Assembly: GCF_000446015.1 (NCBI RefSeq)
Contig: NC_022093.1
Coordinates: forward strand, 1,718,260-1,750,259
Direction of reading: 5' to 3'
DNA: 32,000 nucleotides
Source of the DNA: Thermofilum adornatum
GTDB taxonomy: Archaea > Thermoproteota > Thermoprotei > Thermofilales > Thermofilaceae
Shown here: positions 7,397-27,340 of the stretch, piece after piece
Layout of the letters: every line of letters begins with the position of its first letter
Position numbering within the stretch: position 1 is the first letter of the stretch
Notes under the pieces: generated by a model
Told to the model about the DNA's origin: nothing
What the model saw: the letters and a program-made list of their open reading frames with translations, nothing else
Databases searched by the model: none
Made by a program: the position numbers and the translations under genes

Positions 7397-7397
7397 C

Positions 7398-9873: not shown

Positions 9874-9936
9874 AAAAAAGGAATGTGTGATGCAGGGATA
9901 ATAAAGTTACGCAAATCTATGGGAGAAAGGGGCGGC

Positions 9937-10074
9937 ATGAAATTTATATGTCTGTCTGCACATTTATATATTGATCCGGTAGGATCGCGCCTCGACTGCC
10001 CCGTATGTGGGCTGGATGAAAAGGCGCCCGGGAAAACACAAAAAAAGAAATTTATTTTTTGGGCTTTCTCCTAA
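9937..10074 (+). CDS. Possible small Cys/His-containing protein (45 aa)
   Basis: The ATG is preceded by GAAAGGGG and by an AT-rich box about 30 nt upstream. The protein MKFICLSAHLYIDPVGSRLDCPVCG has C-x3-H-x11-C-x2-C spacing. It converges on the 3' end of 10052..11581 and overlaps it by 23 nt. There is no further support. Confidence 0.25.
   Translation: MKFICLSAHLYIDPVGSRLDCPVCGLDEKAPGKTQKKKFIFWAFS
10040..10046 (-). terminator. T7 tract 6 nt after the stop of the second binding-protein gene (end of the long operon)
   Basis: The minus strand reads TAA-ATTTC-TTTTTTT-GTGTTTTCC. Confidence 0.4.
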
Positions 10075-11581
10075 GCAGTAAAACTGTAGCTAACACTATC
10101 ACTAATACAATTATAGCCAGGACAATGTACAGAGTAAAGTCTTGTGCAGGCTGTTGTGGCTGAGCGGGTTTCGTGGGCTGTGTTGGCTGTTGTTGTGCTG
10201 GTTGTTGTGGCGGATACAGGTTGACCTCTACTGGGGGTGTAACGCTTTTAACTGTGTCTATGTATTGTGGAGCAAACATTCCAATTTTGAGGAGGGGCTT
10301 GTAGAGGTCTGGTAGATCCTGCTCGGTATAGTATTTGGCAAGAGAGGTTGTATCCCACACTATTTGTGCAATATACATGTCCTGTACTGTTCTGTGGTCT
10401 TCTTTTCTTATCTTTATGTCTCCCTTCACAGATGTAAATGTGAGGCCTTCAAGCGCGTTGATTAGTTTTTCAGAGTCTGTTGAGCCGCCGGTCTTCTTTA
10501 ATGCTAGTCCAAGCGCATGGCCAGCCACGAATCCCTCGCCGACAAAAAGGTCTGGCAAGGGGAAGGCTATGAGGACTGAGCCCATCGTTGGAAGTGCTTT
10601 TTTCTTGTAGAGTTCAACATACTTTGAGACAAGCCAGTCGTTGACTGGGTTATTCTGTGGTAGGTTCCAAGCATACTTCATCATTCCCTTGTAGTTGGGC
10701 AGGTATAGGCCCATTTTTAATAGGTTCAGGGTTGCTAGGTCTGGTATGCCTGAGGTGACTTTCATCTTTTGGTAAACTCCTGAAGCGTTTATCTGTTGGT
10801 AGAGTGTTAGAGCTGTTGCTCCACTCCATACGGGAATGAATACCTCTGCCTTTGAGGCCAGGAGAGACTGGATGTAGGGCGTAAAGTCAGTGGTTGTTAC
10901 GGGGGCATATATTGCGGCGACAACGCTTCCTCCTTTCTGTTGAATGATTGTTGACCAGGCATCGACAGTAGAGCGTCCCCAGGAGTTGCTCGGTGCTAGG
11001 AATGCAACTGTTTTGCCGAGGGTGGTGGCAAATGTTCCACCTGCAATTGCGTCGTGCCAAGTTGTACTTGAAATCTGGAAAACGTACCTGTTTAGGTAGG
11101 TCTTGGTTATCTCGTGGTCAGCGGCAGGGACAACCAAGAATACGACCTTGTATTTTTGGGCTATCTGTGTGAGGGCGATAGCTGACGGGCTGTCTGAACA
11201 GCCTACGAGTATCTCGGCTCCCTTGTTTTGTATCAAGTCCTCTGCTGCTTTTGTAGCTGTGGCTGGGTCTGGGATTTGCTGGCCGGCTGGAACATTGGTT
11301 GCCGCTATGATGTGTATTGTTTTGCCTTGCCAGTTAAGTTTCCATTCTAGGTTTGGCGTAACTGTCTCGAAGCTCGGTATCTCTAGCGCGTACATGAGTC
11401 CAAGAATGAAGCCGTTAATTGACATGTCGCCATAGTAGCTTAGTGCACCTGTCCTGTCGGTAACGATGCCTATAACGATTTCATTGGGGTTCTGGGCCTT
11501 GACGTTTATTGGTACAAAGGCTAGTGCTATTAGTGCTATCAAGAGGAGGGAGAGACTTTTAGCTCGTTCTTTTGTTGTCAT
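10052..11581 (-). CDS. Type-I PBP-fold substrate-binding protein of the second HAAT-type ABC system, C-terminally membrane anchored
   Basis: It has an N-terminal signal peptide (SLSLLLIALIALAFVPINVKAQNP) and a PBP core (IVIGIVTDRTGALSYYGDMSINGF). The C-terminus carries a P/Q-rich linker (PPQQPAQQQPTQPTKPAQPQQPAQ), a TM helix and a basic tail (RRKPKK). Confidence 0.8.
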   Translation of the reverse strand: MTTKERAKSLSLLLIALIALAFVPINVKAQNPNEIVIGIVTDRTGALSYYGDMSINGFILGLMYALEIPSFETVTPNLEWKLNWQGKTIHIIAATNVPAGQQIPDPATATKAAEDLIQNKGAEILVGCSDSPSAIALTQIAQKYKVVFLVVPAADHEITKTYLNRYVFQISSTTWHDAIAGGTFATTLGKTVAFLAPSNSWGRSTVDAWSTIIQQKGGSVVAAIYAPVTTTDFTPYIQSLLASKAEVFIPVWSGATALTLYQQINASGVYQKMKVTSGIPDLATLNLLKMGLYLPNYKGMMKYAWNLPQNNPVNDWLVSKYVELYKKKALPTMGSVLIAFPLPDLFVGEGFVAGHALGLALKKTGGSTDSEKLINALEGLTFTSVKGDIKIRKEDHRTVQDMYIAQIVWDTTSLAKYYTEQDLPDLYKPLLKIGMFAPQYIDTVKSVTPPVEVNLYPPQQPAQQQPTQPTKPAQPQQPAQDFTLYIVLAIIVLVIVLATVLLLRRKPKK

Positions 11582-11600
11582 ACGGTTGTAATAATAATTT

Positions 11601-11625
11601 CTTATTCAATAAAAAAAGGGTTAAC
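11601..11625 (-). promoter_or_regulatory. GGTTAAC half-site plus TATA-like box upstream of the second binding-protein gene
   Basis: The minus strand reads GAAATAGTAGTTAACC-c-TTTTTTTATTGAATAAG and ends about 20 nt before the ATG at 11581. Confidence 0.4.
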
Positions 11626-11651
11626 TACTATTTCTGGGCTCTATCTGCCTT

Positions 11652-12668
11652 TTATATCCAGCGGAAGATTGCGCTTGCCATGACGAAGCCTACTCCAGAA
11701 GTGATGAACTGTATGTAGTCTCCCTTCTTAATCTTGCCCTGTGTTAGAGTATCGTGTAGAGCCATGAATACGCAGGCAGATCCAGTGTATCCATATTTCT
11801 CCATGATGGTTGGGGCCTTCTCGATTGGCTGTCCAAGTAGCCTCATCAGCTGGTGGATCATCTCTCTGTTTACCTGTGTGACGAAGTAGTAGCTTATGTC
11901 GTTGGCTGTTAAATTTGCCTTTTTCTGTACCTCTTGTGCGAGTCCTGGCCAGTGGCGAAGGTTTATGTCGGGTGGATACCTTTTAAGGTACCTCAGCTTG
12001 TGCCATCCCTCCTTTACGACGTTCTCGTTTACTGGTCTTGCACCCCCTATGTATATGCCCCAGTAGTCTGTATAACTACCATCCGCAATTATTTTTCCAG
12101 TAATGTAGCCAGGTTCACTTGATGGGCCAAGAATGACGGCTCCAGCTCCGTCAGAGAAAATGGAGGCAGTCACGTCTTGTGGGTCAATAAATTTGGTCAT
12201 CGTGTAAGGTGAAACTACCAAGACATAGTTGACGTCTTCGTTGAGCATGATGTTCTGTGCCGCAAGCATGAGGGCTATTGTGTTGTCTGCACAGGCCGCG
12301 TTTATGTCGAAGCCTCCCGTTTTTAGTTTTGCGCCTAGCTTCTGGTGAACTGCACAAACTGTTGGTGGGGTCTGGAAGTCTGGGGTATCTGTTGCGAATA
12401 TGATAAGGTCGATATCGTCTATAGTGAGGTTGGCGTTTTGAAGAGCCATTCTAGCGGCTTCTGCGGCTAGATCCGAGGGGGCCTGGTCTGGCGCAGAGAC
12501 GTATCGGTGTTTGATGCCTATGCGGTTTTCTAGTGCATTTCTCCATGCATCGGGGAGCTTGAGACCAAAGAACTTTTCATAGTCATCGTTAGTTACTAGT
12601 GTTTTTCCAAGGGCTATGCCCGTGCTCACTATCCTGGCATATTTTTTTATTTCAGGCTTCGTAGCCAT
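11652..12668 (-). CDS. Beta-ketoacyl synthase III (FabH)-like thiolase-fold protein with a non-canonical active site
   Basis: It is collinear with FabH throughout. The nucleophile motif FDINAACADN is conserved. The positions matching the FabH HQAN and GNTSAAS motifs read TQVN and GYTGSAC. The ATG at 12668 is the second codon of the ORF-track model. Confidence 0.85.
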   Translation of the reverse strand: MATKPEIKKYARIVSTGIALGKTLVTNDDYEKFFGLKLPDAWRNALENRIGIKHRYVSAPDQAPSDLAAEAARMALQNANLTIDDIDLIIFATDTPDFQTPPTVCAVHQKLGAKLKTGGFDINAACADNTIALMLAAQNIMLNEDVNYVLVVSPYTMTKFIDPQDVTASIFSDGAGAVILGPSSEPGYITGKIIADGSYTDYWGIYIGGARPVNENVVKEGWHKLRYLKRYPPDINLRHWPGLAQEVQKKANLTANDISYYFVTQVNREMIHQLMRLLGQPIEKAPTIMEKYGYTGSACVFMALHDTLTQGKIKKGDYIQFITSGVGFVMASAIFRWI

Positions 12669-12688
12669 CAAAATACTCTGGGAAAAAT

Positions 12689-12711
12689 CCTATAAAATAA
12701 AAACGGTTAAC
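12689..12711 (-). promoter_or_regulatory. GGTTAAC half-site plus TATA-like box upstream of the KAS III-like gene
   Basis: The minus strand reads GAAATAGTTAACC-g-TTTTTATTTTATAGG, about 20 nt upstream of the ATG at 12668. Confidence 0.4.
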
Positions 12712-12724
12712 TATTTCCCGAAAC

Positions 12725-13954
12725 CTAAAAGATGCTTTCGATCTTTCTCTTGAGCTTCCAGCCTTTAAGCAACCATGTACCGTATATACCGTAAGGTAAT
12801 GCCAGGACAACTATTATGTAGAGGAGTCCGAGAATAAAGCTGGGGAAGAGTTGCAGTTGTTGGAGTGACAGGAAGCCTAGTGATATGAGTGCTGGAGTTA
12901 TCGTTGAAAGGTAGTCTCTAAGGAAGCCAGCAAGGATACCGCCAATAGCTGGTCCAACGAATGTGCCGAGACCACCCAGTATAGCACCAGTCATGGCAAT
13001 GAAGGTCTTATCGGTTGCGAAGACGTCTGGCTGGATTGTAGGTATGCAGGCGACGTACACGCTTCCGGCTACCCCTGCAAAGACGCCTGAAATAAAGAAA
13101 GCTATTAACTGGTGGAGAAAAACGTTGTAGCCTATAACAGATGCCCTTACCGGATTCTCCCTTATTGCTATAAATGTGCTTCCCAGAGGGGATGTGATGA
13201 TTCTCTTAATCAACAGATATGATATGTAGAGGCTAAGGAGAGAGACTAGGTACACGTTAAGAGGATATACAAATCGCAGGATTCTTACATAAGGAAGACC
13301 TGAACCTACTTCATGGAGGAATGTTGCCGAGGAGCTAAAGATTACGTACCCACTATAACCTAAGAAGATAAAGAGCAATAAGACAATCAGTGTTTTGAGA
13401 ACTTTCTGGCGTTTCCGCTTTGTGCTAATGATGTCTATCATCCCGGTCACAAGTGATAGAGCAAGAAATATTGTGAAGAGGGCGAGGTAGAGGTACAGCC
13501 CTTCAAGTGAAGCCATCTCAGGTATCGTACCTACCGTCACAGCAACAGTGGTTTGGGCAGAGTACTCAATAGTAGCTCTAATGGCTTCCGAAATAGCAAG
13601 CGTTAAGATACCATAGTACAGTCCCCTAACACGGTAGCCGGGAAGACCCATGCCGACATAAACAGCTCCCGAAATAAGTGCGGCGGGAATAAGAGATAGA
13701 AGGAACGGGACACCCTGCTTGAGAAGCACCGCCGTAATAAAGGCAGCAACACCGAATGGAACTGCGTGCCCGAAGCTTGGGATTCCCGCGAAACCCAAAA
13801 CTATGTTGTAGCTTAGTGCAAGTAGAGCCCATACAAATGTCAGGGGAATGCCTGTAGCCAGTGACCTGTCTAGCCATGGAATGGCAAGGAGTATTGTTAA
13901 GGACAAGTATCCAAGAAACCTATTAGGCAACAAGTAGTTCCTTAGTTTCTCCAT
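12725..13954 (-). CDS. livM: HAAT-family ABC transporter permease, LivM-type (enlarged, 409 aa)
   Basis: Polytopic protein. Motifs: YNIVLGFAGIPSFGHAVPFGVAAF and SPLGSTFIAIRENPVRASVIGYN. Confidence 0.85.
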   Translation of the reverse strand: MEKLRNYLLPNRFLGYLSLTILLAIPWLDRSLATGIPLTFVWALLALSYNIVLGFAGIPSFGHAVPFGVAAFITAVLLKQGVPFLLSLIPAALISGAVYVGMGLPGYRVRGLYYGILTLAISEAIRATIEYSAQTTVAVTVGTIPEMASLEGLYLYLALFTIFLALSLVTGMIDIISTKRKRQKVLKTLIVLLLFIFLGYSGYVIFSSSATFLHEVGSGLPYVRILRFVYPLNVYLVSLLSLYISYLLIKRIITSPLGSTFIAIRENPVRASVIGYNVFLHQLIAFFISGVFAGVAGSVYVACIPTIQPDVFATDKTFIAMTGAILGGLGTFVGPAIGGILAGFLRDYLSTITPALISLGFLSLQQLQLFPSFILGLLYIIVVLALPYGIYGTWLLKGWKLKRKIESIF

Positions 13955-13958
13955 TTTC

Positions 13959-14831
13959 TCACCTCTTGAATAATCCTTCTGGTTTAACCACTAGGACAAC
14001 TATCATGACTATGAGATCTATCGCAAAGCCCAGTTGGGGTATAAAGTAGGCTACAAGCCTGTCGACAAATCCTATCAGTAGACTCGCATAGAAGGCTCCC
14101 GAATAACTTTTCATGCCTCCTACCACGGGGATAGCGAATGCTAGAAGTGAAAAGTGGACAGGGAGCTCTATGGTTGCATGCGTCAGTGGAGCAACTAGTG
14201 CGCCACCCAGTAGTGCCAGGGCGACGCCAAATGTAAATGCAGACGTGAAGAGCATCGAGATATCTACACCGAAGACTGTAGCGAGCTCTCGGTTCTCTGT
14301 CCCCGCCCTAAGCTTTATACCAATCATGGTTTTTGAAAGAAGTGTACTCATGGTGCCGAATAGGACAAATCCAATCGCTATAAGAACAAACTTATAGATC
14401 CTTATCCTGACATCTGCTAGCTGTATATATCCTGACAACAAGAAGTTTTGAGTCTCCGGAAATACGAGCCCTGTTGGCCATATTAGTTGCATAAAGGTAT
14501 ACAATAGAGTCATTAGTCCCATGGTAAGTAGTAATTGTGCTAATGGATTCCCGTATACCGGCCGTATTATTGCTCTCTCGGTTAGAAGACCAAGGACTAT
14601 CCCTATAAGAAAAGTTAACAATAGGCTCAACAGGAAGTTATTCGTCATGTAATAAAACGTCACAAAGAGATATGCTCCTAGTCCAAAAAAGGCGCCCTGT
14701 GCTAGGTTAAAGACATCCATTAAGCCAAAAATAATCACAAGTCCTATGGCTGCAAGGTAGATCATTGATGAATAAGTCAACCCGTCTATAACTGCGCTTA
14801 GAATCAATTCAGGTGAAACCATATCCACCAC
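13959..14831 (-). CDS. livH: HAAT-family ABC transporter permease, LivH-type
   Basis: Motifs: AAIGLVIIFGLMDVFNLAQGAFFGLGAYL and MIGIKLRAGTENRELATVFGVD. Confidence 0.85.
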   Translation of the reverse strand: MVDMVSPELILSAVIDGLTYSSMIYLAAIGLVIIFGLMDVFNLAQGAFFGLGAYLFVTFYYMTNNFLLSLLLTFLIGIVLGLLTERAIIRPVYGNPLAQLLLTMGLMTLLYTFMQLIWPTGLVFPETQNFLLSGYIQLADVRIRIYKFVLIAIGFVLFGTMSTLLSKTMIGIKLRAGTENRELATVFGVDISMLFTSAFTFGVALALLGGALVAPLTHATIELPVHFSLLAFAIPVVGGMKSYSGAFYASLLIGFVDRLVAYFIPQLGFAIDLIVMIVVLVVKPEGLFKR

Positions 14832-15551
14832 CTATAAGCTTACACCCAGGATTCTCCTTATTACATGATTGTTTTCTTCTATTTTTTCCGAGGGAAAACC
14901 TGTCACCACAACACCTTTATCCATCAGGTAAATGTAATCTGTTATTTCGCGGGCGTAAGCAAAGTTCTGTTCAATCAATAGTATTGTCTTCTTATTTTCA
15001 AGCATGTAGTGCCTCAGCTGCCTGTAGAAGTTTTTAACATAAGCTGGGCTTAGACCCTCAGATGGCTCATCTAGTATGAGAAGATCATGCTCCCTTACCA
15101 GTCCACATGCAAGTGCAAGCATTCTTTGCTGACCGCCGCTAAGTTCTCCTGCTAGGAGGCCAGAGAACCGTTTAAGCTCTGGGAAAAGATTCATTACCAT
15201 TTCAAGCTTGTCGTCGAATTTTTCCTTTGGGCCATTATAGGCTAGCTTAAGGTTCTCAATGACGGTAAGGTTTGCAAATACATTTTTCTCTGCTGGGACA
15301 AAACTTATTCCCCTCTTGACTATGCTATGCGTTGGGAAATTAGTGATGTTCTCTCCTTTGAAAAACACTTCTCCCCTAGCTGCCTTATATATTCCCATTA
15401 TTGTTTTTAGAGTTGTTGTTTTTCCCACGCCATTTCTACCTAGAATGGCCGTGAGCTTGTATTCTTCCGCTTCGAAGTTTACTCCTTGAAGTATATGGAA
15501 GCCGCCTATATATGCATGAAGATCCTTTACTTTCAGAATTGGAGACGCCAC
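14832..15551 (-). CDS. livF: HAAT-family ABC transporter ATP-binding protein, LivF-type
   Basis: Walker A GRNGVGKTT, GISFVPAEKNVFANLTVIENL, signature LSGGQQRMLALACGL and Walker B LLILDEPSEGL. The ORF extends to 15593. A GTG at 15551, one nt after the upstream stop, is the more economical start. Confidence 0.85.
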   Translation of the reverse strand: MASPILKVKDLHAYIGGFHILQGVNFEAEEYKLTAILGRNGVGKTTTLKTIMGIYKAARGEVFFKGENITNFPTHSIVKRGISFVPAEKNVFANLTVIENLKLAYNGPKEKFDDKLEMVMNLFPELKRFSGLLAGELSGGQQRMLALACGLVREHDLLILDEPSEGLSPAYVKNFYRQLRHYMLENKKTILLIEQNFAYAREITDYIYLMDKGVVVTGFPSEKIEENNHVIRRILGVSL

Positions 15552-15552
15552 A

Positions 15553-16305
15553 TCATTCACCCAGGTAGATTTTCTGAACCTCCCTATTCTCAACTATCTC
15601 TTTGGGAGACCCTTCCGCGAGAATACTTCCCTGATTCATTACGCTGACTTTGTCTGCTACTTCGAGAACAACATCTATTTTGTGCTCGATCACTACAACT
15701 GTTTTCTTCATTTCGTCTCTCAGCTTTTTAATGAGACGTACAATTGGTGCTACCTCCTCTAGAGATACGCCGGCCGTGGGCTCATCTAATGCTATGAGCT
15801 TTGGGTTTCCAGCAAGGGCAATAGCGATTTCTAGTTTCCGTTTGTCGCCTGGGGTGAGGCTACTTGCCAAAATGTTTGTCTTGCCGTAGAGGCCAGTTAT
15901 GGAGGCAATCCGCATGGCTTCCCAGACAACATCTTTGTAATGGCTTGTTGGATGAATGAAGTCCCATCTCACGTTTTTCCATTTTGCTTGGACAGCAAGC
16001 CTTATGTTTTCGAGAACAGTAAGGTTTGGGAAAATCGAATATATTTGGAAAGACCTTGTTAGACCCAGGGAGCTAATGTAGTGAGGGGGTTTACCAGTTA
16101 TATCTCTGTCCTCAAAATACACTTTACCACTTGTAGGTTTGAGGACTCCAGTAATCAAGTTAAATAGCGTTGTTTTCCCAGCACCGTTGGGACCTATTAT
16201 AGCATGAACCGTGCCCTGCGCCACCTTCAGGTTAACATTGCTGACAGCTACGAGTCCACCGAAGCTCTTTGTGAGATTTTCTGTGCGTAGAATTATGCCT
16301 GACAT
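15553..16305 (-). CDS. livG: HAAT-family ABC transporter ATP-binding protein, LivG-type
   Basis: Walker A GPNGAGKTT, LTRSFQIYSIFPNLTVLENI and Walker B LIALDEPTAGV. Confidence 0.9.
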   Translation of the reverse strand: MSGIILRTENLTKSFGGLVAVSNVNLKVAQGTVHAIIGPNGAGKTTLFNLITGVLKPTSGKVYFEDRDITGKPPHYISSLGLTRSFQIYSIFPNLTVLENIRLAVQAKWKNVRWDFIHPTSHYKDVVWEAMRIASITGLYGKTNILASSLTPGDKRKLEIAIALAGNPKLIALDEPTAGVSLEEVAPIVRLIKKLRDEMKKTVVVIEHKIDVVLEVADKVSVMNQGSILAEGSPKEIVENREVQKIYLGE

Positions 16306-16306
16306 G

Positions 16307-17086
16307 TTAGATGCCCCTGAAAAATTCTAGCAATAATTGGTTGTATTCTTCGGGTCTTTCCCTGTGGGGCATGTGTCCTACGCCTTTCATTATGTGCGCC
16401 TTTGAGGTAGGCACCATGGCGTGCATTTCTTCGACGACCTCTGGTGGGGATATGTAGTCTAGCTCTCCAGAAATGAAGAGAACAGGGTTCCTAAGTGATC
16501 TGATTATGTCTCTGTAGCTTTTTTCTGTCGCAGCTTCAGCGCTCTGTATGTAGACACGTTTATCAGTTCGTGAGATTATCTCATAGATTTCTCGTTTTAA
16601 TTCGGTAGATGCGTATGGCGACACAGCGAACTCAGCTACTTGGCTGGCTATTTCATGCATAGACATGTTTTCAAGAACTTCTGTCATTGCTGGTGGGTAT
16701 TCAGGTGCAATGGCTTCGAGGACAATCTTCTCAAATCTTTGTAGATACAAGCGGTAAAGCTCTAGCAGGACTAGGCCGCCCATTGAGTAGCCTACCATGA
16801 GCGCTTTCTCTATCTTTTCGGCTTCGAGGACGCTTTCTACGTCTCTAGCAAAATCCTCCATTGATATCCTTTTTGGGGGAATCTGGCTTTCGCCGTGCCC
16901 GCGAAGGTCTAGTGCTAATACCCTGTACCCCCTAGCTGGGAAGAACTCTAACTGGGGTTTCCATGTAAGATGGCTTTCGCCCAAGCCGTGTACGAAGATT
17001 ATTGGTGTTCCATTTCCTTCAGCAACATAGTGTATCTTTATACCGTCTTTTGATTTTGCATACCTGTGCTCTAATCCCTGCGACAT
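16307..17086 (-). CDS. Alpha/beta-fold hydrolase (esterase / C-C hydrolase-like)
   Basis: HG oxyanion motif IFVHGLGES, nucleophile elbow GYSMGG and a C-terminal His region GVGHMPHRERPEE. Confidence 0.85.
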   Translation of the reverse strand: MSQGLEHRYAKSKDGIKIHYVAEGNGTPIIFVHGLGESHLTWKPQLEFFPARGYRVLALDLRGHGESQIPPKRISMEDFARDVESVLEAEKIEKALMVGYSMGGLVLLELYRLYLQRFEKIVLEAIAPEYPPAMTEVLENMSMHEIASQVAEFAVSPYASTELKREIYEIISRTDKRVYIQSAEAATEKSYRDIIRSLRNPVLFISGELDYISPPEVVEEMHAMVPTSKAHIMKGVGHMPHRERPEEYNQLLLEFFRGI

Positions 17087-17088
17087 TT

Positions 17089-17886
17089 TTATTTCACCTC
17101 TCCCTTAAGAAAATTCGACACCAGTACATTAATTTCGCCCGGTTTTTCCCAAATAGAGACATGCCCACTTTCAACTTCAGCATATTTTCCATTGGGAAGC
17201 TCCTCAACTATCAACTTGGAGTATCTAGGCGGGAAGAATCTGTCATGAGTGCTGGCAACAACAAGAGTTGGCATTGTTAGTTTGGAGAGCTTTCCCCTCA
17301 GATCGAGCCTAAGAAAAGCTTTAATCATCTCTTCGAATGCTACCATGTCTACAAGCTCGAAGTTAGGTGCCAAAGAAGAAATAAAGGAGAAACTGTTATT
17401 GATGAACTCGTCTGAGAATATGTCCGGAATCATTACTTGCCACAGGAATCTACCTGACTTAAGCCGTGCCGCCAAAATCCACCTGTCGGCACGCAGTCTC
17501 AAGGCCTTGTCTACGGTGTGCGACGAATTTAGAATTACGAGTTTTTCGACTTGCTCGGAGAAGGCTAGCGCAGTAGCCAATGCTACTTTTCCGCCATAAG
17601 AGATGCCTGCAAGCGTAAAAGTGTTAATGCCCAAGTAATCTAACAGTTCCTTCAAGTCAGAAACATGTCTATCAATACTATAACCTGTCCTCGGCTTATC
17701 ACTTTGTCCCTGACCACGCATATCATGTAGAACTACCTTATAGCCTAGGTTCCTCAGATATTCTGCTTGAAGCCTCCATCCTACAGTATTCATCGTTATG
17801 CCATTGAGTAGCACTACCGTCTTTTCCCCTTCACCTTCGACCTCGTAATAGATCTTTATACCGTCCGTTGTAGTGAAATACGCCAT
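17089..17886 (-). CDS. Alpha/beta-fold hydrolase, second paralogous-type copy
   Basis: VVLLNGITMN, nucleophile elbow GISYGG and a C-terminal His region ESGHVSIWEKP. It sits 2 nt from the downstream hydrolase gene. Confidence 0.85.
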   Translation of the reverse strand: MAYFTTTDGIKIYYEVEGEGEKTVVLLNGITMNTVGWRLQAEYLRNLGYKVVLHDMRGQGQSDKPRTGYSIDRHVSDLKELLDYLGINTFTLAGISYGGKVALATALAFSEQVEKLVILNSSHTVDKALRLRADRWILAARLKSGRFLWQVMIPDIFSDEFINNSFSFISSLAPNFELVDMVAFEEMIKAFLRLDLRGKLSKLTMPTLVVASTHDRFFPPRYSKLIVEELPNGKYAEVESGHVSIWEKPGEINVLVSNFLKGEVK

Positions 17887-17891
17887 GGATC

Positions 17892-19463
17892 CTACACCTC
17901 TAACTTGTCTTCAGGTTTTCCATAAAGGATTTTAAGAGGCTGGCGAGCCACCTTCCCAGTCTCCGTGTAGACAAGTTGGGGAACAACTTCTACATACTTT
18001 GGTATTTTGTATTTCGCGAGCTTGTCTTTCAAGAAATCTATGACTTCTTCTTTCGTTATCTTTTCTCCCTCCTTAAGTACAATCAATGCCTTTGGAACCT
18101 CCCCCCACTTGGGGTCAGGGACTCCTATAACCACTGCATCCTTAATCTTTGGATGCATAATCAAAAGCCTCTCAATTTCTTCTGGATACACGCTCTCTTC
18201 ACCACTCCTAATGATGTTCTTAATTCTCCCAGCTATCCAGAAATAGCCTTCCTCATCTACCCTAGCAACGTCTCCCGTAGCCAGCCATCCATCCTTTATA
18301 ATAGACTTCATCTCTTCCTCGTTTTTCAGGTATCCTGAAAACACGCTTGGACCCCTTAGGTACAGCTCGCCCTCAACACCTCTGGGAGCCTCACTTCCAT
18401 CTGGAAGAACAACCCTGGCCTCTATCAATAGGTTCGGTTTCCCAATCGACCCCATTTTCCTCTTAGCGTCCCATGGATCGAGAGCAAAAATACCTGGACC
18501 CATCTCGGTCATCCCAAAACCTTGTTTCTGGACAACACCCTTCTCAAATATTTTCTCGATGATGTCTGGCGTTAACGCTCCCCCGCCGCTTGTAAACCAC
18601 CTAACGGATGAAAAGTCTGCGTCCTTGAAACGGGGCGAAGCAAGCAACATCCTAAGTTGCGTCGGAACCAGGAAGAGAAATGTTGGTCTCTCCTCTTCTA
18701 CGAGGTCAATAAACCTATCAACATTCCATCTTCGCATTAGAATACTTGTCCCTCCAAACATTAATAGAGGGATTAGATATGTGAAGGCACCAATGTGGAA
18801 GAGAGGTAACGTGTTGATTGTGACGTCGCCAGGTATAACCAAGTCCCTAACAGTGTTCAAGGCGTTCCAGAGAATCATCCTGTGACTTACTATTGTAAAT
18901 TTTGGCTTTCCAGTTGTTCCACCAGTTTGTAGTATTAGGGCGGGGTCTTCGAGGCAACACGCCGTCGAGACATCATTGGAAGAGTATTTCTCATAATTAA
19001 ACTCGTTTGGACAGTCATAGCACACTTTCTTCGTCTCTATGTTAGAGACGGTTTCTGAAAATTCTTTTTCATATAGGAGAACTTTTGGATTGACTTTATC
19101 AACAAACTCTTGAATTTCACGTGAAGTGTACCTCGTGTTTATAGGAGCTAGGACACAGCCAATCTTGAAACATGCAAGAAGCGTGGCAACAAACTCTATG
19201 CGGCTCCACGAAAGAATAGCTACATAATCTCCCTTGCTTATTCCGAAATTTTCCCGAAGAAAATTAGCAATCTTGTTGGACATCTCGTTTAGCTGTGCAA
19301 AGGACACCGTACGTAAGGGTATCGTTAGGTCGTCCTTGAGTGCTATCCAATTACCACTTATATCTGCTCTACGAGCTATCCAGTTGTTGACCCATTTTCC
19401 ACACGTATAGATTCTCTCCAGAGACATATAATGCATGTTAATAGGTGAAATCGTGTTATACAT
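17892..19463 (-). CDS. AMP-dependent acyl-CoA synthetase/ligase (ANL superfamily)
   Basis: Core motifs: LQTGGTTGKPK, GFGMTE, GWLATGDVARVDEEGYFWIAGRIKNIIRSGEESVYPEEIE and a C-terminal TETGKV. Alternative ATG starts at 19436 and 19427 would leave the palindrome at 19467..19485 further upstream. Confidence 0.9.
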   Translation of the reverse strand: MYNTISPINMHYMSLERIYTCGKWVNNWIARRADISGNWIALKDDLTIPLRTVSFAQLNEMSNKIANFLRENFGISKGDYVAILSWSRIEFVATLLACFKIGCVLAPINTRYTSREIQEFVDKVNPKVLLYEKEFSETVSNIETKKVCYDCPNEFNYEKYSSNDVSTACCLEDPALILQTGGTTGKPKFTIVSHRMILWNALNTVRDLVIPGDVTINTLPLFHIGAFTYLIPLLMFGGTSILMRRWNVDRFIDLVEEERPTFLFLVPTQLRMLLASPRFKDADFSSVRWFTSGGGALTPDIIEKIFEKGVVQKQGFGMTEMGPGIFALDPWDAKRKMGSIGKPNLLIEARVVLPDGSEAPRGVEGELYLRGPSVFSGYLKNEEEMKSIIKDGWLATGDVARVDEEGYFWIAGRIKNIIRSGEESVYPEEIERLLIMHPKIKDAVVIGVPDPKWGEVPKALIVLKEGEKITKEEVIDFLKDKLAKYKIPKYVEVVPQLVYTETGKVARQPLKILYGKPEDKLEV

Positions 19464-19466
19464 TTT

Positions 19467-19485
19467 AGGTTAACATTGTTAACCT
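19467..19485. promoter_or_regulatory. Inverted repeat AGGTTAAC-ATT-GTTAACCT (candidate operator)
   Basis: The 8-bp arms are perfect. It lies 4 nt upstream of the longest-ORF ATG of the acyl-CoA synthetase, inside the 194-nt divergent region shared with the HTH regulator gene. Confidence 0.5.
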
Positions 19486-19657
19486 TTGACATAATATTAA
19501 TGACCGGGGTGCCATTCTTATCGTTGCTACAAGGATATTTCCTTCTCAACGATTAAAAGGTATCTCTTTTTCTATAGTTTTTACGACAGTAGGCTACATT
19601 ATAAAAACACACTACAGAAAATTTAAATAGTTGTTTTCGTAATATTTTGCATGGATA

Positions 19658-20392
19658 ATGATGTACATTGGAGTGTTCGACATTGAGCAATATGATTGCC
19701 CCGTTGTTAAATTGACCGAGAAAAGAGAAGGCGTTACAACAACAGTTCTATCAGTAAATGTATCTGAACTTTCAAGGGGAGTAGAGCAGATCTTTTTAAC
19801 AATTAAGAGTTCCGAGCAGGACAAGCTTAAGGACATTCTAGAAGTCGCGCAAACAATTCCCGAAGTAAAGAACTGTAAAGTACTTGGGAAGTCTGACGAT
19901 GCATGGAGAATACTCATGAACATTAAAAAGACACATACAATGGAGGCTAGTGTAAATCTTGGTGCAATGTTTGTTTCTCCGTGGATTGCGAGAAGCGGCG
20001 TTGAGAGGTGGACCCTAGGCTTCATAAGTAAGAAACAGTTCTACGATTTTCTGTCTTTGATCAGGGAAAGAGACCATGTAAAGAAATACTACTTGACAGA
20101 GGTAAAGGAGGAGGACTTTGTAACTGTTTCTGCAAACTATCTATCTATACTTAAATTGGTTTCGCAACTGAACAAGCTGACCCCCAATCAGCTGAACATG
20201 TTAAAGCTGGCTTTGTCTAAGGGATATTATTCGTGGCCGAAGGGGGTTGATAGCGTTGAACTATCAAGAATGCTAGGCGTTTCTCGTGTGAGTATAATTA
20301 AGTCGCTTAGGAAAGCTGAATACAAGGTGCTAGGTCCCGTTGTAGAATTTGTGTCAATGGTTAAGAAAGATTGGGAGAAAAACTACACTTAA
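19658..20392 (+). CDS. HTH_10 (Bat-type) helix-turn-helix transcriptional regulator
   Basis: The C-terminus LTPNQLNMLKLALSKGYYSWPKGVDSVELSRMLGVSRVSIIKSLRKAEYKVL matches the HTH_10 pattern (LT..Q...L..A...GY...PR......LA..LG.S......LRRAE.K). The TATA-like AAATTTAAATAG lies about 27 nt upstream of the ATG. Confidence 0.75.
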   Translation: MMYIGVFDIEQYDCPVVKLTEKREGVTTTVLSVNVSELSRGVEQIFLTIKSSEQDKLKDILEVAQTIPEVKNCKVLGKSDDAWRILMNIKKTHTMEASVNLGAMFVSPWIARSGVERWTLGFISKKQFYDFLSLIRERDHVKKYYLTEVKEEDFVTVSANYLSILKLVSQLNKLTPNQLNMLKLALSKGYYSWPKGVDSVELSRMLGVSRVSIIKSLRKAEYKVLGPVVEFVSMVKKDWEKNYT

Positions 20393-20396
20393 ATAA

Positions 20397-20410: not shown

Positions 20411-20412
20411 CT

Positions 20413-21387
20413 CTAAGCCAGTGGAGATGCAATAGTGGTTCCTAGGTCTATGGGTATCACTATTCCTGTGAGTGCCTCGTTTTCCACCACGTGGTATGCC
20501 AATTTAGCAATTTCTTCCGGCTCGACGAGTCTCGCTATTGGAATCCTCCTTAAGTATTCTTGGAGGATCGGTGAAGGCACTGCGAGAGCCATCCTAGTCT
20601 TGGCGAATCCTGGAGCTATAGCTACGACTCTGATACCGTAGGGGGCAAGCTCCTTTGCAAGCGTCTTAGTGAGACCTATGAGTCCCGCCTTAGAAGCCGC
20701 ATAATTTGCCTGGGCAATGTTTCCAAGCAATCCTACAATTGACGAAATATTGATGATTACTCCCCCGCCGTTCCTTTTCATTATTGGGAAAACAGCTTTT
20801 GAGCATAGGAAAGCTCCCTTTAGATTCACATTTAATACGCTGTCCCAGTCTTCGTCCTTCATTCTCTCTAGATAAGTGTCACGTGTTATGCCAGCATTGT
20901 TTACCAATACATCGATCCGGCCGGCCAGCCGTAAAGCCTCTGATATGCCCTTAGAAACACTCTCACTCTTGCTGACGTCCATCTCTACGAAGTATGCCTC
21001 TACACCTAGGTTCTTTATAGCTTCGAGAGTTTTTTCTGCTTCCTGATCTCTCACTATATCCGCAATGACGACGTTGTAACCGTGCCGAGCAAACTCTAGT
21101 GATATTGCCGCTCCTATGCCTCTGCTTCCCCCGGTAACAAGGACGACTTTTCTTGGCTGATCGACACGCGGGATAAATACTGGGATTTTGCCGAAGACTG
21201 TCAATTCTTCTGTGAGTTCTCCTTCAGCTCCCTCCTTTACAAGCCCCATGTATTTTTGAGGTATTCTCGCGATTCTTTTTTCTCCATTTCCATTCTCAAC
21301 TATGGCGACGATGTACGTAGACTTGTAGGGCTCTACAGGGGTCAGCAATTCGGTAAATATTCTTACTTTCCACGCCATTCCCTTCAC
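20413..21387 (-). CDS. Fusion protein: N-terminal DUF35-type OB-fold domain plus short-chain dehydrogenase/reductase (FabG-like 3-oxoacyl reductase)
   Basis: SDR part: VVLVTGGSRGIGAAI (TGxxxGxG), LVNNAGI, ISSIVG and the catalytic YAASKAG (YxxxK). The N-terminal ~75 aa (AWKVRIFTELLTPVEPYKSTYIVAIVENGNGEKRIARIP...VKEGAEGEL) match the DUF35 OB-fold pattern by eye, and no zinc ribbon is present. The GTG start overlaps the thiolase TGA (GTGA). The SDR call is confident; the DUF35 call is moderate. Confidence 0.8.
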   Translation of the reverse strand: MKGMAWKVRIFTELLTPVEPYKSTYIVAIVENGNGEKRIARIPQKYMGLVKEGAEGELTEELTVFGKIPVFIPRVDQPRKVVLVTGGSRGIGAAISLEFARHGYNVVIADIVRDQEAEKTLEAIKNLGVEAYFVEMDVSKSESVSKGISEALRLAGRIDVLVNNAGITRDTYLERMKDEDWDSVLNVNLKGAFLCSKAVFPIMKRNGGGVIINISSIVGLLGNIAQANYAASKAGLIGLTKTLAKELAPYGIRVVAIAPGFAKTRMALAVPSPILQEYLRRIPIARLVEPEEIAKLAYHVVENEALTGIVIPIDLGTTIASPLA

Positions 21388-22592: not shown

Positions 22593-22610
22593 AGGTTAAC
22601 ATTGTTACCT
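22593..22610. promoter_or_regulatory. Near-copy of the 19467 palindrome: AGGTTAACATTGTTACCT
   Basis: It is identical to the 19467..19485 element except for one missing A in the right arm. It lies 34-51 nt upstream of the thiolase start in a 69-nt intergenic region. Confidence 0.5.
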
Positions 22611-23287: not shown

Positions 23288-23295
23288 GGTTAACC
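23288..23295. promoter_or_regulatory. GGTTAACC palindrome between divergent promoters
   Basis: It lies in the 98-nt divergent intergenic region. On the plus strand it is followed directly by TATATTAC. On the minus strand it is followed after 7 nt by TTTTATTTATC. Confidence 0.4.
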
Positions 23296-25111: not shown

Positions 25112-25126
25112 AAAAATTTTATTTTT
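25110..25126. terminator. Bidirectional A7/T4-A-T5 tract between convergent genes
   Basis: The plus strand reads TAAAAAAATTTTATTTTT. This gives T-tracts after the plus-strand stop (25109-25111) and a T7 after the minus-strand ACD alpha stop (25119-25121). Confidence 0.45.
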
Positions 25127-27321: not shown

Positions 27322-27340
27322 TGGTTAACAATTATAACAA
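27322..27340. promoter_or_regulatory. Degenerate copy of the palindrome: TGGTTAACAATTATAACAA
   Basis: 14 of 19 positions match AGGTTAACAATGTTAACCT. It lies 46-64 nt upstream of the ACD beta start and, in the gene's sense, directly upstream of TTTTTTTAGAC. Confidence 0.4.

Follow-up and report, generated by a model that had tools for sequence, protein, structure and literature searches.

A putative carboxylic acid uptake and CoA-activation locus in Thermofilum adornatum, and a widespread KAS III-like family that appears to lack the residues of the classical reaction

What is a Liv-type ABC importer doing in the company of an acyl-CoA ligase, alpha/beta-hydrolases, and a KAS III-like protein, and what would it carry? 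We analysed a window of 32,000 nt from the hot-spring archaeon Thermofilum adornatum (Thermofilaceae; NC_022093.1, 1,718,260-1,750,259; GCF_000446015.1), and all coordinates below count from its first letter. ORF and Pfam readings of the window bear out the gene content and order of the original prediction: nine ORFs lie on the minus strand between 10052 and 19463, in the order AMP-ligase, two alpha/beta-hydrolases, LivG, LivF, LivH, LivM, KAS III-like protein (KAS3L), and Peripla_BP_6 substrate-binding protein (SBP). The predicted layout is likewise found in the sequence: i) the first seven genes are tightly packed, with measured gaps of 0-9 nt (5, 2, 1, 1, 0-9, and 4 nt); ii) spacers of 56 nt before KAS3L (ATG 12668) and 70 nt before the SBP both contain T-rich TATA-like boxes; iii) a T7 tract (10040..10046, minus strand) stands directly 3′ of the SBP stop, a candidate archaeal terminator and cluster end; and iv) a divergent HTH_10 regulator (19658-20392) and a thiolase/SDR pair (20413-22559) lie upstream. 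The predicted extent holds for the gene set but not for the outer boundary, since the ligase probably starts at ATG 19427 rather than 19463: orthologues begin M[SGA]LE[RK], which matches 19427 here, and ATG 19463 falls within a TATA-like element. Nor do the nine genes by themselves appear to make up the functional unit, which is probably larger; thiolase, SDR, and HTH_10 regulator relocate together yet stay linked, and a shared promoter box reaches 27329.

The ligase (17892..19427, minus strand) is an AMP-forming acyl-CoA ligase of the FadD type. It has intact adenylation motifs, the A10 Lys, and a C-terminal domain of the CoA-ligase type, and it best resembles long-chain, feruloyl, and MenE-type ligases. 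The hydrolases abH1 (17089..17886, minus strand; GISYG, Asp, and GH motifs) and abH2 (16307..17086, minus strand; a divergent subtype with a GYSMG nucleophile elbow, Asp, and GH motifs) are predicted to be cytoplasmic and have intact Ser/Asp/His motifs. No hydrolase reaches a specific NCBIfam cutoff, and sub-threshold matches to PHA depolymerases, for abH2 also to a PHB depolymerase structure, are no stronger than those to enol-lactonases, macrolide esterases, and BioH. We infer de-esterification by abH1 and abH2 from these motifs, and the two could be thioesterases or C-C hydrolases instead; small alpha/beta-hydrolases of a related kind also serve as acyl-CoA thioesterases (PMC6138646).

The importer comprises, all on the minus strand, a LivG-type ATPase with a BCA_ABC_TP_C tail (15553..16305; Pfam), a LivF-type ATPase of 239 aa from ATG 15551 (14832..15551; PF00005), a LivH-type permease (13959..14831; PF02653), and an unusually long LivM-type permease of 409 aa (12725..13954; PF02653, with NCBIfam LivM/UrtC-like matches below cutoff). 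Its 509-aa SBP (10052..11581, minus strand; Pfam Peripla_BP_6) has a predicted topology of N-terminal signal/anchor, Peripla_BP_6 domain, Pro/Gln-rich linker, and C-terminal transmembrane helix. PDB matches of the SBP are led by two unassigned binding proteins (3n0x/3nnd), then 4ey3, 4f06, and 4evs, which we take to be R. palustris binding proteins for aromatic acids. LivJ and LivK are not among the matches in this PDB search, whereas the SBP of an adjacent second Liv operon (SBP2) matches both as well as other LIV binders, which makes Leu/Ile/Val specificity of the importer unlikely.

KAS3L (11652..12668, minus strand; 338 aa; ACP_syn_III and ACP_syn_III_C) has the KAS III fold and belongs to a distinct clade; the earlier reading gave the gene no role. 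Its AF2 model (pLDDT 92.8) superimposes in Foldseek on FabH, BioZ, and PqsD with TM scores of 0.88-0.93 at no more than 32% identity. Asp94, Cys126, Thr264, and Tyr294 of KAS3L stand at FabH Thr81, Cys112, His244, and Asn274. Among the 120 family members examined, all keep the acyl-accepting Cys, all replace the FabH His/Asn with Thr(Asn)/Tyr, and all have gained an invariant Asp; the Gly-rich oxyanion-loop motif S324-G325-x-G327 is also retained in KAS3L, and the exact FabH Gly306 column holds Val, Ala, or Gly in the family. The pocket-gating FabH Phe87 is Thr in KAS3L and Ser/Thr in the family, a replacement that opens the pocket and so suggests longer acyl chains. The His/Asn pair of FabH drives malonyl decarboxylation. 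Judged by its residues, KAS3L cannot be a canonical decarboxylating ketosynthase because both are absent, and the KAS III-like assignment thus stands for the fold but not for the classical activity. Altered-triad KAS III homologues that are acyltransferases provide a precedent (PMC12308425). The KAS3L clade occupies at least 595 loci in many phyla, nearly always adjoining a CoA-activating enzyme and alpha/beta-hydrolases, and no characterised member of it was found. What is new here is that KAS3L, by this residue pattern, is a widespread enzyme family without the residues for the classical reaction.

The nine-gene order, when checked in relatives, was found in other Thermofilaceae (KAS3L 75-85% identical; one contig at 59% GC), where the thiolase-SDR-HTH_10 block relocates with its linkage retained. 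In Thorarchaeota, nine loci bring all nine families together in changed order, and Chloroflexi have a comparable clustered gene set; abH1 matches the hydrolase 3′ of the ligase in the Thorarchaeota clusters (36% identity, 157 bits). The recurrence of the order in Thermofilaceae and the co-clustering in Thorarchaeota argue that the arrangement is not due to chance. Across 80 KAS3L loci from many phyla, a same-strand ligase lies within 6 kb in 65 and is adjacent in 55, an alpha/beta-hydrolase lies within the same distance and on the same strand in 58, and an importer is present in about 15. The conserved core is KAS3L with a CoA-activating enzyme and hydrolases, the importer is accessory, and the system is not restricted to archaea. 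In one Chloroflexota cluster a CoA-transferase, closest in NCBIfam to butyryl-CoA:acetate transferase, takes the place of the ligase, and elsewhere the ABC importer gives way to a Na:solute symporter (SSS) with a TonB receptor, or to an MFS transporter and TonB receptor accompanied by TetR and MaoC. Because ligase and importer each undergo non-orthologous displacement by equivalents, transport appears to be functionally tied to CoA activation. SDR and MaoC genes often adjoin KAS3L, with MaoC (R)-hydratase genes in 21 loci.

GTTAACC occurs 9 times in the window against 3.2 expected, a count reached in none of 100 shuffles, and 7 of the 8 distinct sites are intergenic (P about 2e-7; 15 intergenic regions surveyed). 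In six promoters in a row the box occupies the BRE position, 35-47 nt from the start, and orthologous promoters keep it at GC contents of 43% and 59%; the intergenic region downstream of the cluster (9874-10051) has none. Boxes stand 38 nt 5′ of the SBP ATG (11619..11625, minus strand; followed by a T-rich TATA-like element, kept in loci L089 and L092, a candidate internal promoter/operator) and 37 nt 5′ of the KAS3L ATG (12705..12711, minus strand; followed by TATA-like TTTTTATTTTATA, kept in L092, degenerate in L089). An inverted pair, GGTTAAC-AAT-GTTAACC (19468..19484), immediately precedes a TATA-like element, lies about 41 nt upstream of the ligase start, and is kept in both loci, a candidate operator; the thiolase promoter carries a near-identical element, its box (GGTAACAATGTTAACCT; 22594..22600, minus strand) lying about 35 nt 5′ of the thiolase start and again kept in both. 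Palindromic GGTTAACC (23288..23295) occupies the divergent promoter region between two genes for predicted secreted hydrolases, C92 and a 589-aa protein, and a further box, with a T-rich element behind it, stands 47 nt 5′ of the beta start of an ADP-forming acyl-CoA synthetase (27323..27329, minus strand). GTTAACC probably serves as operator for the neighbouring HTH_10 regulator (HVO_2525_N plus HTH_10; 19658..20392, plus strand; linked to thiolase-SDR even after block relocation), which would bind the candidate sequence GGTTAACAATGTTAACC, but it could be a promoter-class element and not an HTH_10 operator.

The shared box suggests a larger regulon, and on its account we count the thiolase-SDR pair, the two secreted hydrolases, and the ATP-yielding acyl-CoA synthetase in the system, a composition that favours catabolism. 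The SDR (20413..21387, minus strand) is closest to the MFE-2 (3R)-hydroxyacyl-CoA dehydrogenase, with a 78-aa N-terminal extension without assigned fold and an invariant Asp ending beta2, a NAD-type signature by what is a sequence heuristic. The thiolase is of the SCP2/archaeal type (21384..22559, minus strand; Thiolase_C_1). The 589-aa hydrolase (23342..25111, plus strand) joins a signal-anchored, predicted extracellular alpha/beta-hydrolase (DLH/PETase/PAF-AH-like Pfam matches) to a C-terminal polytopic membrane domain. Domain matches identify the ADP-forming acyl-CoA synthetase (25119..27276, minus strand; beta 26557-27276, alpha 25119-26579), an enzyme type that converts acyl-CoA to acid and ATP. 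The YiiX/C92 permuted papain-like hydrolase (22629..23243, minus strand) has a predicted signal peptide and a close homologue adjoining KAS3L in locus L090, and its family has a hydrophobic pocket that binds fatty acid (PMC3142127). Neither an acyl-CoA dehydrogenase nor an enoyl-CoA hydratase is in the cluster, and plain fatty acid beta-oxidation is therefore not fully encoded locally.

We lean, with modest confidence, towards a co-regulated system, centred on the nine genes, that takes up a hydrophobic carboxylic acid from outside the cell and activates it. This acid would most likely be a fatty or hydroxy-fatty acid derived from lipids or esters, and not an amino acid. Specifically, i) the secreted YiiX/C92 protein and membrane-fused esterase would free substrate extracellularly; ii) the surface-tethered, non-LivJ-type SBP would capture the ligand and LivGFHM import it; iii) the two cytoplasmic serine hydrolases would hydrolyse an ester or lactone to give the free acid, or else have a thioester-editing role; iv) the FadD-type ligase would make the acyl-CoA, and the CoA-transferase that replaces the ligase in a Chloroflexota cluster supports the need for a CoA thioester; v) KAS3L, whose role we deduce from its missing residues, would most likely accept on Cys126 a CoA-borne acyl group of medium or long chain length, then pass it on by transacylation or carry out non-decarboxylative C-C or ester chemistry; and vi) the NAD-type (3R)-hydroxyacyl-CoA dehydrogenase and SCP2-type thiolase would process the CoA ester further, with ATP recovered by the ADP-forming synthetase. 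The original prediction of non-amino-acid carboxylate import gains support from the SBP matches, from the linkage of transport to CoA activation, and from documented cases in which SBPs of the Liv type have fatty, dicarboxylic, or aromatic acids as ligands and adjoin CoA ligases (PMC3223731).

The substrate could also be an (R)-3-hydroxyalkanoate or oligo-ester (PHA breakdown products, lipid-A or rhamnolipid-type 3-hydroxy acids), a minority possibility in which esterases would split oligomers, the ligase would form (R)-3-hydroxyacyl-CoA, the (3R)-dehydrogenase would oxidise it, and the thiolase or KAS3L would cleave the 3-ketoacyl-CoA. The nearest relative of the SDR, the MaoC genes in 21 loci, the depolymerase matches, and the butyryl-CoA:acetate transferase likeness of the replacing enzyme all agree with it, and a substrate already 3-hydroxylated would not need the locally missing dehydrogenase and hydratase; but the depolymerase matches are no better than their competitors, the ligase is nearest long-chain, feruloyl, and MenE-type enzymes, and the Phe87 replacement points to longer chains. 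Far less probable, and already disfavoured, is an Ole-like beta-lactone pathway with KAS3L as OleA (head-to-head condensation), the SDR as OleD, the ligase as OleC (beta-lactone synthetase), and a hydrolase as OleB: the same four superfamilies co-occur and structures that are presumably OleA (3row/3s21/4ku5) appear among distant KAS3L matches, but OleA retains the His/Asn that KAS3L lacks, KAS3L is far nearer FabH (1e-41) than OleA (1e-12), the ligase resembles FadD and has the C-terminal domain of a CoA ligase, the CoA-transferase that replaces it in one cluster cannot make a beta-lactone, and dedicated uptake systems favour catabolism.

That an ordinary branched-chain amino-acid importer sits beside unrelated acyl-CoA genes by chance is likewise already disfavoured and seems to us very improbable; Pfam and NCBIfam do assign the transporter to the Liv/Urt (HAAT) family, but only the adjacent operon's SBP has LivJ/LivK similarity, the transporter-ligase-hydrolase-KAS3L linkage is kept in Thermofilaceae, Thorarchaeota, Chloroflexi, Caldisericota, and Thermotogae, and LIV is not a ligand of most COG0683 SBPs in R. 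palustris (PMC3223731). Alternatively, the imported acid would serve, once activated, as a primer for elongation by an archaeal fatty-acid synthesis that depends on CoA and not on ACP, with KAS3L (alone or with the thiolase) condensing and the SDR as (R)-specific ketoacyl-CoA reductase. In S. acidocaldarius, fatty acids are built on CoA by a thiolase/DUF35 pair together with an (R)-specific FabG-like SDR and a MaoC dehydratase; no decarboxylating ketosynthase is identifiable for this synthesis, and in Sulfolobus the (R)-specific SDR and the thiolase serve biosynthesis (bioRxiv 10.1101/2024.07.05.601840); the frequent SDR and MaoC neighbours of KAS3L would fit as well. We nevertheless consider elongation unlikely, because malonyl decarboxylation cannot drive condensation by a KAS3L without His/Asn, a dehydratase and enoyl reductase are absent from the Thermofilum cluster, the SDR has a NAD-type Asp whereas Saci_1104 of Sulfolobus is NADPH-specific, the promoter box is common to secreted hydrolases and the ATP-yielding synthetase, and the bacterial core is accompanied by uptake systems and TetR regulators typical of catabolic operons. 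Uptake and activation of a hydrophobic acid remains our preferred reading, with an SBP that resembles R. palustris binding proteins, some of which bind aromatic acids, and not LivJ/LivK.

Nine consecutive minus-strand ORFs are present at 10052-19463, as the original prediction had it, and Pfam bears out its gene list: an AMP-binding ligase, two alpha/beta-hydrolases (abH1 and abH2), LivG with a BCA_ABC_TP_C tail, LivF, two BPD_transp_2 permeases (LivH and LivM), a KAS III-like protein (KAS3L, 11652-12668) with both ACP_syn_III domains in one protein, and a Peripla_BP_6 binding protein (SBP, 10052-11581). The first seven genes, which are presumably co-transcribed, are tightly packed, with gaps of 0-9 nt; the predicted spacers are also in place, KAS3L beginning at ATG 12668, 56 nt past livM, and the SBP gene starting 70 nt past KAS3L, as are the T7 tract after the last stop (10040-10046) and the neighboring divergent HTH_10 regulator, SDR, and thiolase. 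The ligase start proposed at 19463 has to be corrected: orthologous ligases begin with M[SGA]LE[RK], corresponding to ATG 19427, and ATG 19463 sits within a TATA-like element. The window shares 95% identity with CP007493.1 and about 99% with contigs from hot-spring metagenomes, the closest named relatives being Thermofilaceae. Cluster order, which was to be sought in related genomes, is kept in two more distant Thermofilaceae contigs, L092/L093 (KAS3L 85% identical; GC 59% versus about 45% in the window) and L089 (KAS3L 75% identical). The thiolase-SDR-HTH_10 block has moved to the opposite end of the cluster in L089 yet is still attached, which argues that it belongs to the same functional unit.

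Beyond the Thermofilaceae, the conserved core is KAS3L with a CoA-activating enzyme and hydrolases, and not the transporter. We searched the six-frame ORFs of 80 loci, retrieved from other genomes via KAS3L-specific peptide patterns, with the window proteins as phmmer queries; because single-linkage clustering of neighbor ORFs fused the ligase and hydrolase families via shadow ORFs in GC-rich genomes, neighbors were labeled from these phmmer matches and Pfam checks of representatives. An AMP-ligase lies on the KAS3L strand within 6 kb in 65 of the 80 loci (directly adjacent in 55), an alpha/beta-hydrolase is present in 58 (adjacent in 41), and a Liv system is found in only about 15. Among other neighbors, TetR regulators recur in 38 loci, TonB-dependent receptors in 22, MaoC (R)-hydratases in 21, MFS transporters in 16, and SDRs in 15, and the typical acidobacterial operon reads TetR-TonB receptor-hydrolase-KAS3L-ligase-hydrolase-MaoC-MFS. 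Nine Thorarchaeota loci, some on truncated contigs, carry the nine families of the cluster in another order (LivG-LivF-LivH-LivM-hydrolase-KAS3L-ligase-hydrolase-SBP), and loci from Chloroflexi, Caldisericota, Thermotogae, and Desulfurococcaceae hold subsets, transporter included. Two hydrolase subtypes have fixed places, one directly upstream of KAS3L (36% identical between Thorarchaeota and Acidobacteria, and accounting for 34 of 37 upstream-adjacent hydrolases) and the other after the ligase; abH1 matches the downstream type of Thorarchaeota (36% identity, 157 bits), and abH2 represents a third. At least 595 loci of the KAS3L clade were confirmed in a collection that takes a single genome for each species, and they are distributed over Chloroflexota, Acidobacteriota, Myxococcota, Gemmatimonadota, Caldisericota, Thermotogae, Thorarchaeota, and Desulfurococcaceae, to which protein matches add Njord- and Odinarchaeota, Sulfolobales, and Nitrospiraceae.

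The functional logic of the cluster is revealed by non-orthologous DISPLACEMENT of ligase and importer. On a Chloroflexota plasmid (L087, with the order SDR-KAS3L-transferase-thiolase-DUF35-hydrolase-SBP-Liv ABC), the ligase slot holds an acetyl-CoA hydrolase/transferase-family enzyme closest to butyryl-CoA:acetate CoA-transferase, and on a Bacteroidota plasmid the importer slot is filled by a Na:solute symporter and a TonB receptor. These replacements support the central idea of the original prediction, that uptake is joined to CoA activation.

In some clusters from Chloroflexi and Thorarchaeota (L023, L024, L044, L057) there is another KAS3L-like gene, more divergent (58-80 bits) and paired with a second ligase, upstream or on the opposite strand, which suggests duplicated ligase-KAS3L modules of differing specificity. 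A contig labeled Njordarchaeia (L090, GCA_052585085.1, 1123-18714) encodes a KAS3L 65% identical to that of Thermofilum and a C92 protein very similar to the Thermofilum one (308 bits), along with a ligase-hydrolase pair, LivHM, an SDR, an MFS gene, and a further hydrolase spread across 18 kb; a recent lateral transfer or mis-binning of the contig may account for this.

KAS3L itself consists of Pfam PF08545 and PF08541 (the N- and C-terminal ACP_syn_III domains) in a thiolase-type alpha-beta-alpha-beta-alpha fold (AF2 model pLDDT 92.8; Foldseek TM 0.88-0.93 to FabH, BioZ, and PqsD), and Foldseek returned no solved structure more than 32% identical. It scores below the NCBIfam FabH cutoffs, with 200 bits for PRK09352 (cutoff 249) and 186 bits for TIGR00747 (cutoff 292). 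The residue comparison took E. coli FabH as reference, with numbering that reproduces its known catalytic positions. Among 120 family members, i) the FabH Cys112 column is Cys in all 120; ii) the His244 column is Thr in 98 and Asn in 22; iii) the Asn274 column is Tyr in all 120, inside an invariant KYGYTGSAC-type motif; iv) the Thr81 column is Asp in all 120; and v) the Phe87 column, which closes the FabH acyl pocket, is Ser, Thr, or Ala in all 120. The His and Asn of the Cys-His-Asn triad (E. coli C112/H244/N274) are absent from every one of the 120. The column of Arg249, the ACP-docking residue of E. coli FabH, is Glu in the window KAS3L and variable across the family, with no conserved Arg. 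In FabH, His and Asn are required for malonyl decarboxylation and not for acyl transfer from CoA to Cys, and the small residue at 87 has a parallel in the long-chain-specific FabH of mycobacteria. Archaea have no known ACPs, according to a paper that mentions KAS III solely in the context of BioZ (PMC6138646). Because His and Asn are absent, residue 87 is small, and the altered-triad KAS III homologs DpsC/OxaC and CerJ are acyltransferases (PMC12308425), we infer that KAS3L is an acyl-S-Cys enzyme that transfers or otherwise processes medium- or long-chain acyl-CoA, rather than a FabH-type ketosynthase. Literature searches found nothing on the KAS3L clade, and nothing relevant on KAS III-like enzymes in archaea, FabH in Thorarchaeota, or Thermofilum acyl-CoA/ABC clusters.

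The partner enzymes are of more familiar kinds. No hydrophobic segments were found in the ligase, abH1, abH2, or KAS3L. The ligase is an ANL-superfamily acyl-CoA synthetase with AMP-binding and AMP-binding_C domains (Pfam), all adenylation motifs (QTGGTTGKPK, FGMTE, TGD, TETGKV), and the C-terminal Lys; its best PDB matches are fatty-acyl- and feruloyl-CoA synthetases (5e-91), and the nearest subfamily is long-chain-fatty-acid-CoA ligase. Nucleophile elbows (GISYG in abH1, GYSMG in abH2), an aligned Asp, and GH motifs identify both hydrolases as serine hydrolases; they resemble metagenomic carboxylesterases, enol-lactonases, macrolide esterases, and PHA depolymerases, and reach no specific NCBIfam equivalog cutoff. 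An archaeal hydrolase of comparable kind has esterase as well as propionyl-CoA thioesterase activity (PMC6138646). The SDR is nearer yeast MFE-2 (3R)-hydroxyacyl-CoA dehydrogenase (248 bits) than any FabG, and the thiolase is of the SCP2/archaeal type. Asp at the end of beta2, which in classical SDRs indicates NAD(H), is invariant in seven KAS3L-cluster SDRs. An N-terminal extension of the SDR (21154-21387, minus strand), 78 aa long and confined to Thermofilaceae, is beta-rich in a low-confidence model; its identification as a fused DUF35 OB-fold was supported neither by Pfam (E<=10), nor by BLASTP against genuine DUF35, nor by Foldseek (pLDDT-69 model). DUF35 (Zn-ribbon and OB fold), which in thiolase/DUF35 scaffolded complexes of the archaeal HMGCS or FAS type is encoded with the thiolase, was not detected among the window's annotated ORFs (80-100 aa or longer); the fetched loci include one genuine DUF35, in L087.

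The importer is of the HAAT/Liv type (TC 3.A.1.4), with two ATPases (one bearing the BCA_ABC_TP_C tail), two BPD_transp_2 permeases, and a Peripla_BP_6 protein (Pfam). The best solved relatives of SBP are 3n0x and 3nnd, both unassigned binding proteins (1e-36), followed by 4ey3, 4f06, and 4evs, which we take to be R. palustris aromatic-acid binders; no LivJ/LivK or other LIV-binding structure is found among its PDB matches at E<=1e-5, and a literature search for 3N0X and 3NND found nothing relevant. SBP2, the binding protein of a second complete Liv-type ABC operon nearby, is LivJ/LivK-like and matches the LIV binders 3td9, 4n0q, 2lbp, 1usg, 1z15, and 2liv; SBP and SBP2 share just 24% identity over 155 residues. 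SBP thus appears not to be of the Leu/Ile/Val-specific LivJ/LivK type. Very few R. palustris COG0683 proteins respond to Leu/Ile/Val, and most bind aromatic, fatty, or dicarboxylic acids, some being encoded beside CoA ligases (PMC3223731). The signal/anchor, Pro/Gln linker, and C-terminal TM helix of SBP indicate a surface-tethered protein. Cluster LivM (12725-13954, minus strand) is 409 aa long, about 100 aa above typical, with a Pfam match stretched over residues 34-380, and the extra length is kept in Thermofilaceae (409-414 aa).

The second Liv operon occupies 3912-8810 on the minus strand (SBP2 7398-8810, permeases 6431-7396 and 5378-6424, ATPases 4609-5394 and 3912-4625) and is followed by a TauE/SafE exporter at 3017-3835. 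Elsewhere in the window, tandem minus-strand ORFs at 1126-1680 and 1877-2458 have weak protoglobin-domain matches (E about 1e-5) and adjoin a Roadblock/LC7 gene (770-1141) and a MazE-like gene (2656-3036); a LigD_N 3'-phosphoesterase domain is encoded on its own at 27374-27736 on the minus strand, neither a ligase nor a polymerase domain adjoining it in the window; and an AA_permease_2 amino-acid permease is split into two overlapping plus-strand ORFs (29403-29846 and 29789-30736), which could reflect a frameshift, a pseudogene, or a sequencing error.

A shared promoter box ties the cluster to its neighbors. The window contains GTTAACC 9 times, where 3.2 occurrences are expected and 0 of 100 shuffles reached 9, and 7 of the 8 distinct sites are intergenic, intergenic sequence making up 8.1% of the window (binomial P about 2e-7). 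The intergenic sites lie directly 5' of a T-rich TATA-like element, 35-47 nt ahead of the start codon, which is the position of a BRE. The box forms an inverted pair before the ligase, GGTTAACAATGTTAACC, and reads GGTAACAATGTTAACC before the thiolase; the other promoters bearing it are those of KAS3L, SBP, a divergent pair encoding a C92 protein and a 589-aa hydrolase, and an ADP-forming acyl-CoA synthetase. These make up exactly six consecutive intergenic regions, from 11582 to 27373, and GTTAACC is absent from the window's other nine, including those of the second Liv operon and a 2-hydroxyacid dehydrogenase. In L089 and in GC-rich L092 the box is kept before the orthologs of the ligase, thiolase, and SBP genes, and in part before that of KAS3L. 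A box and TATA-like element at each of KAS3L and SBP favor the separate promoters that had been proposed for these two genes. An extended spacer motif, AATAGTNNTTAACCNTTTTT, failed to generalize, unlike the shorter GTTAACC core, and a scan for sigma-70 promoters and hairpin terminators, uninformative for an archaeon, gave counts below shuffle expectation. The sole coding-region GTTAACC (16230-16236, minus strand), 70 nt inside livG, is probably a chance occurrence, and may be an internal regulatory site. The distribution of the box suggests that the units bearing it form a regulon, presumably controlled by the adjacent HTH_10 protein.

The members thereby added are consistent with catabolism. 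A signal peptide is present on the C92 protein, whose family has a hydrophobic pocket, occupied by a fatty acid in the YiiX crystal (PMC3142127). The 589-aa protein (23342-25111, plus strand) combines a signal anchor, an extracellular alpha/beta-hydrolase domain resembling cutinase, PETase, and PAF-acetylhydrolase, and a C-terminal polytopic membrane domain; this last, of about 300 aa, has no Pfam match, and the fusion is unusual. The ADP-forming synthetase converts acyl-CoA to acid and ATP. We propose that secreted hydrolases free a hydrophobic acid or small ester; that tethered SBP and LivGFHM bring it into the cell; that the cytoplasmic hydrolases finish de-esterification or edit thioesters; that the ligase forms the CoA ester; that KAS3L makes an acyl-Cys intermediate and then transfers or transforms the acyl group; that the NAD-type (3R)-dehydrogenase and thiolase shorten the acyl chain; and that the ADP-forming synthetase harvests ATP. 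The proposal has two weak points: acyl-CoA dehydrogenase and hydratase are absent locally, and a similar enzyme pair is biosynthetic in Sulfolobus. An (R)-3-hydroxy-acid or oligo-ester substrate, which only sub-threshold similarities suggest, would remove the first.

Other pathways can be built from similar parts. The cluster shares with OleABCD the association of a thiolase-superfamily condensing-enzyme homolog, an alpha/beta-hydrolase, an ANL-superfamily enzyme, and an SDR, but an Ole-like or beta-lactone pathway was rejected on the catalytic residues of KAS3L, which lack the His and Asn that OleA retains with its Cys, and on the exchange of the ligase for a CoA-transferase in L087. Since a CoA-transferase could not stand in for the beta-lactone synthetase OleC, this exchange speaks against such a role for the ligase; the dedicated importers are a further difference. 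A BioZ/BioH/BioW-like pimelate route was also rejected: the BioZ and BioH matches are generic, KAS3L is without decarboxylation residues, and no bio genes are nearby, and the matches to MenE and MenH are likewise generic and both below cutoff. PcaD, the top NCBIfam match of the hydrolases, would point to a beta-ketoadipate route; this is unlikely because the match, at about half of the cutoff, weighs no more than those to other sub-threshold families. We favor uptake and CoA activation of a hydrophobic carboxylate or ester, with KAS3L acting on the acyl group.

A Liv-type importer beside a CoA ligase is a known bacterial theme, and archaeal fatty-acid gene clustering is known from Sulfolobus. 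What is new is i) a distinct, very widespread, uncharacterized KAS III-fold clade with an Asp/Cys/Thr/Tyr constellation; ii) its partnership with a CoA-activating enzyme and two hydrolase subtypes in both prokaryotic domains, with interchangeable uptake systems; and iii) a candidate regulon and operator in Thermofilaceae, the GTTAACC box being a candidate operator for an archaeal HTH_10 regulator. Archaeal fatty-acid metabolism is a live question for the "lipid divide" and the origin of eukaryotic membranes, and no decarboxylating ketosynthase could be identified in S. acidocaldarius (bioRxiv 10.1101/2024.07.05.601840). Here a KAS III homolog is conserved in Thermofilaceae, Thorarchaeota, and other archaea, yet in a form incapable of the classical reaction, and in an uptake-and-CoA-activation operon common to many bacterial phyla. 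The result is a large uncharacterized enzyme family whose genomic partners are clear, whose residue signature can be tested, and for which tractable bacterial hosts exist, and it corrects the automatic public-record annotations "ketoacyl-ACP synthase III" and "branched-chain amino acid ABC transporter". The KAS3L family may represent new chemistry. We would go further only tentatively, and with more doubt than confidence: the Asp/Cys/Thr(Asn)/Tyr KAS III-fold proteins might constitute a new catalytic class of the thiolase superfamily which, with a CoA-activating enzyme and two conserved alpha/beta-hydrolase subtypes, forms the core of an undescribed pan-prokaryotic pathway (at least 595 loci, from Asgard and TACK archaea to Acidobacteria and Myxococcota) that handles an imported carboxylate by neither FabH-type condensation nor classical thiolysis, for example by cleaving or transferring an ester-linked acyl group in a CoA- or Cys-dependent way. 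If true, this would be the first defined role of a KAS III homolog in archaea, where no ACP is known.

Among known systems, R. palustris CouP/CouB (p-coumarate) and RPA3723-3725 beside pimFABCDE (fatty and dicarboxylic acids) likewise place Liv-type importers beside CoA ligases, linking a COG0683/Peripla_BP_6 SBP, a LivGFHM-type transporter, and an AMP-forming CoA ligase, and their ligands are hydrophobic carboxylates rather than Leu/Ile/Val (PMC3223731). These gene sets are bacterial and, as described there, include neither a KAS III-like gene nor paired alpha/beta-hydrolases (PMC3223731); downstream, unlike the cluster, they employ a hydratase/lyase or a complete set of beta-oxidation enzymes, and the Thermofilum SBP differs in being C-terminally membrane-tethered.

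Saci_1103-1126 of S. acidocaldarius, which we believe also holds acyl-CoA ligases and esterases, is presumably regulated by the TetR-type FadR, as the original prediction also stated, versus HTH_10 in Thermofilum. It too is an archaeal CoA-dependent fatty-acid cluster with a thiolase and an (R)-specific FabG-like SDR, this reductase being NADPH-specific and biosynthetic in contrast to the Thermofilum SDR with its NAD-type Asp, and the description mentions no ABC transporter and no FabH/KAS, in keeping with the earlier statement that the Sulfolobus cluster is without such an importer (bioRxiv 10.1101/2024.07.05.601840). Peroxisomal (R)-specific beta-oxidation by MFE-2/SCPx resembles the Thermofilum pairing of an MFE-2-closest SDR with an SCP2-type thiolase, and bacterial clusters have MaoC hydratase-2-type genes, but the Thermofilum enzymes are separate small proteins, and the cluster has neither acyl-CoA oxidase/dehydrogenase nor hydratase.

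KAS3L shares with FabH/KAS III, BioZ, and PqsD its fold, the position of the nucleophilic Cys, the Gly-rich oxyanion loop region, and about 30% identity, but it is encoded with a ligase, hydrolases, and transporters instead of fab genes. The best mechanistic analogy is with the acyltransferases DpsC/OxaC (Ser-His-Asp) and CerJ, in which, as we propose for KAS3L, a KAS III fold has been turned to acyl transfer after triad changes (PMC12308425). Those acyltransferases retain a His and act in PKS/NRPS natural-product pathways, loading carrier proteins or sugars, whereas KAS3L combines Cys with Thr, Tyr, and Asp and is encoded in uptake-linked operons of a primary-metabolism type.
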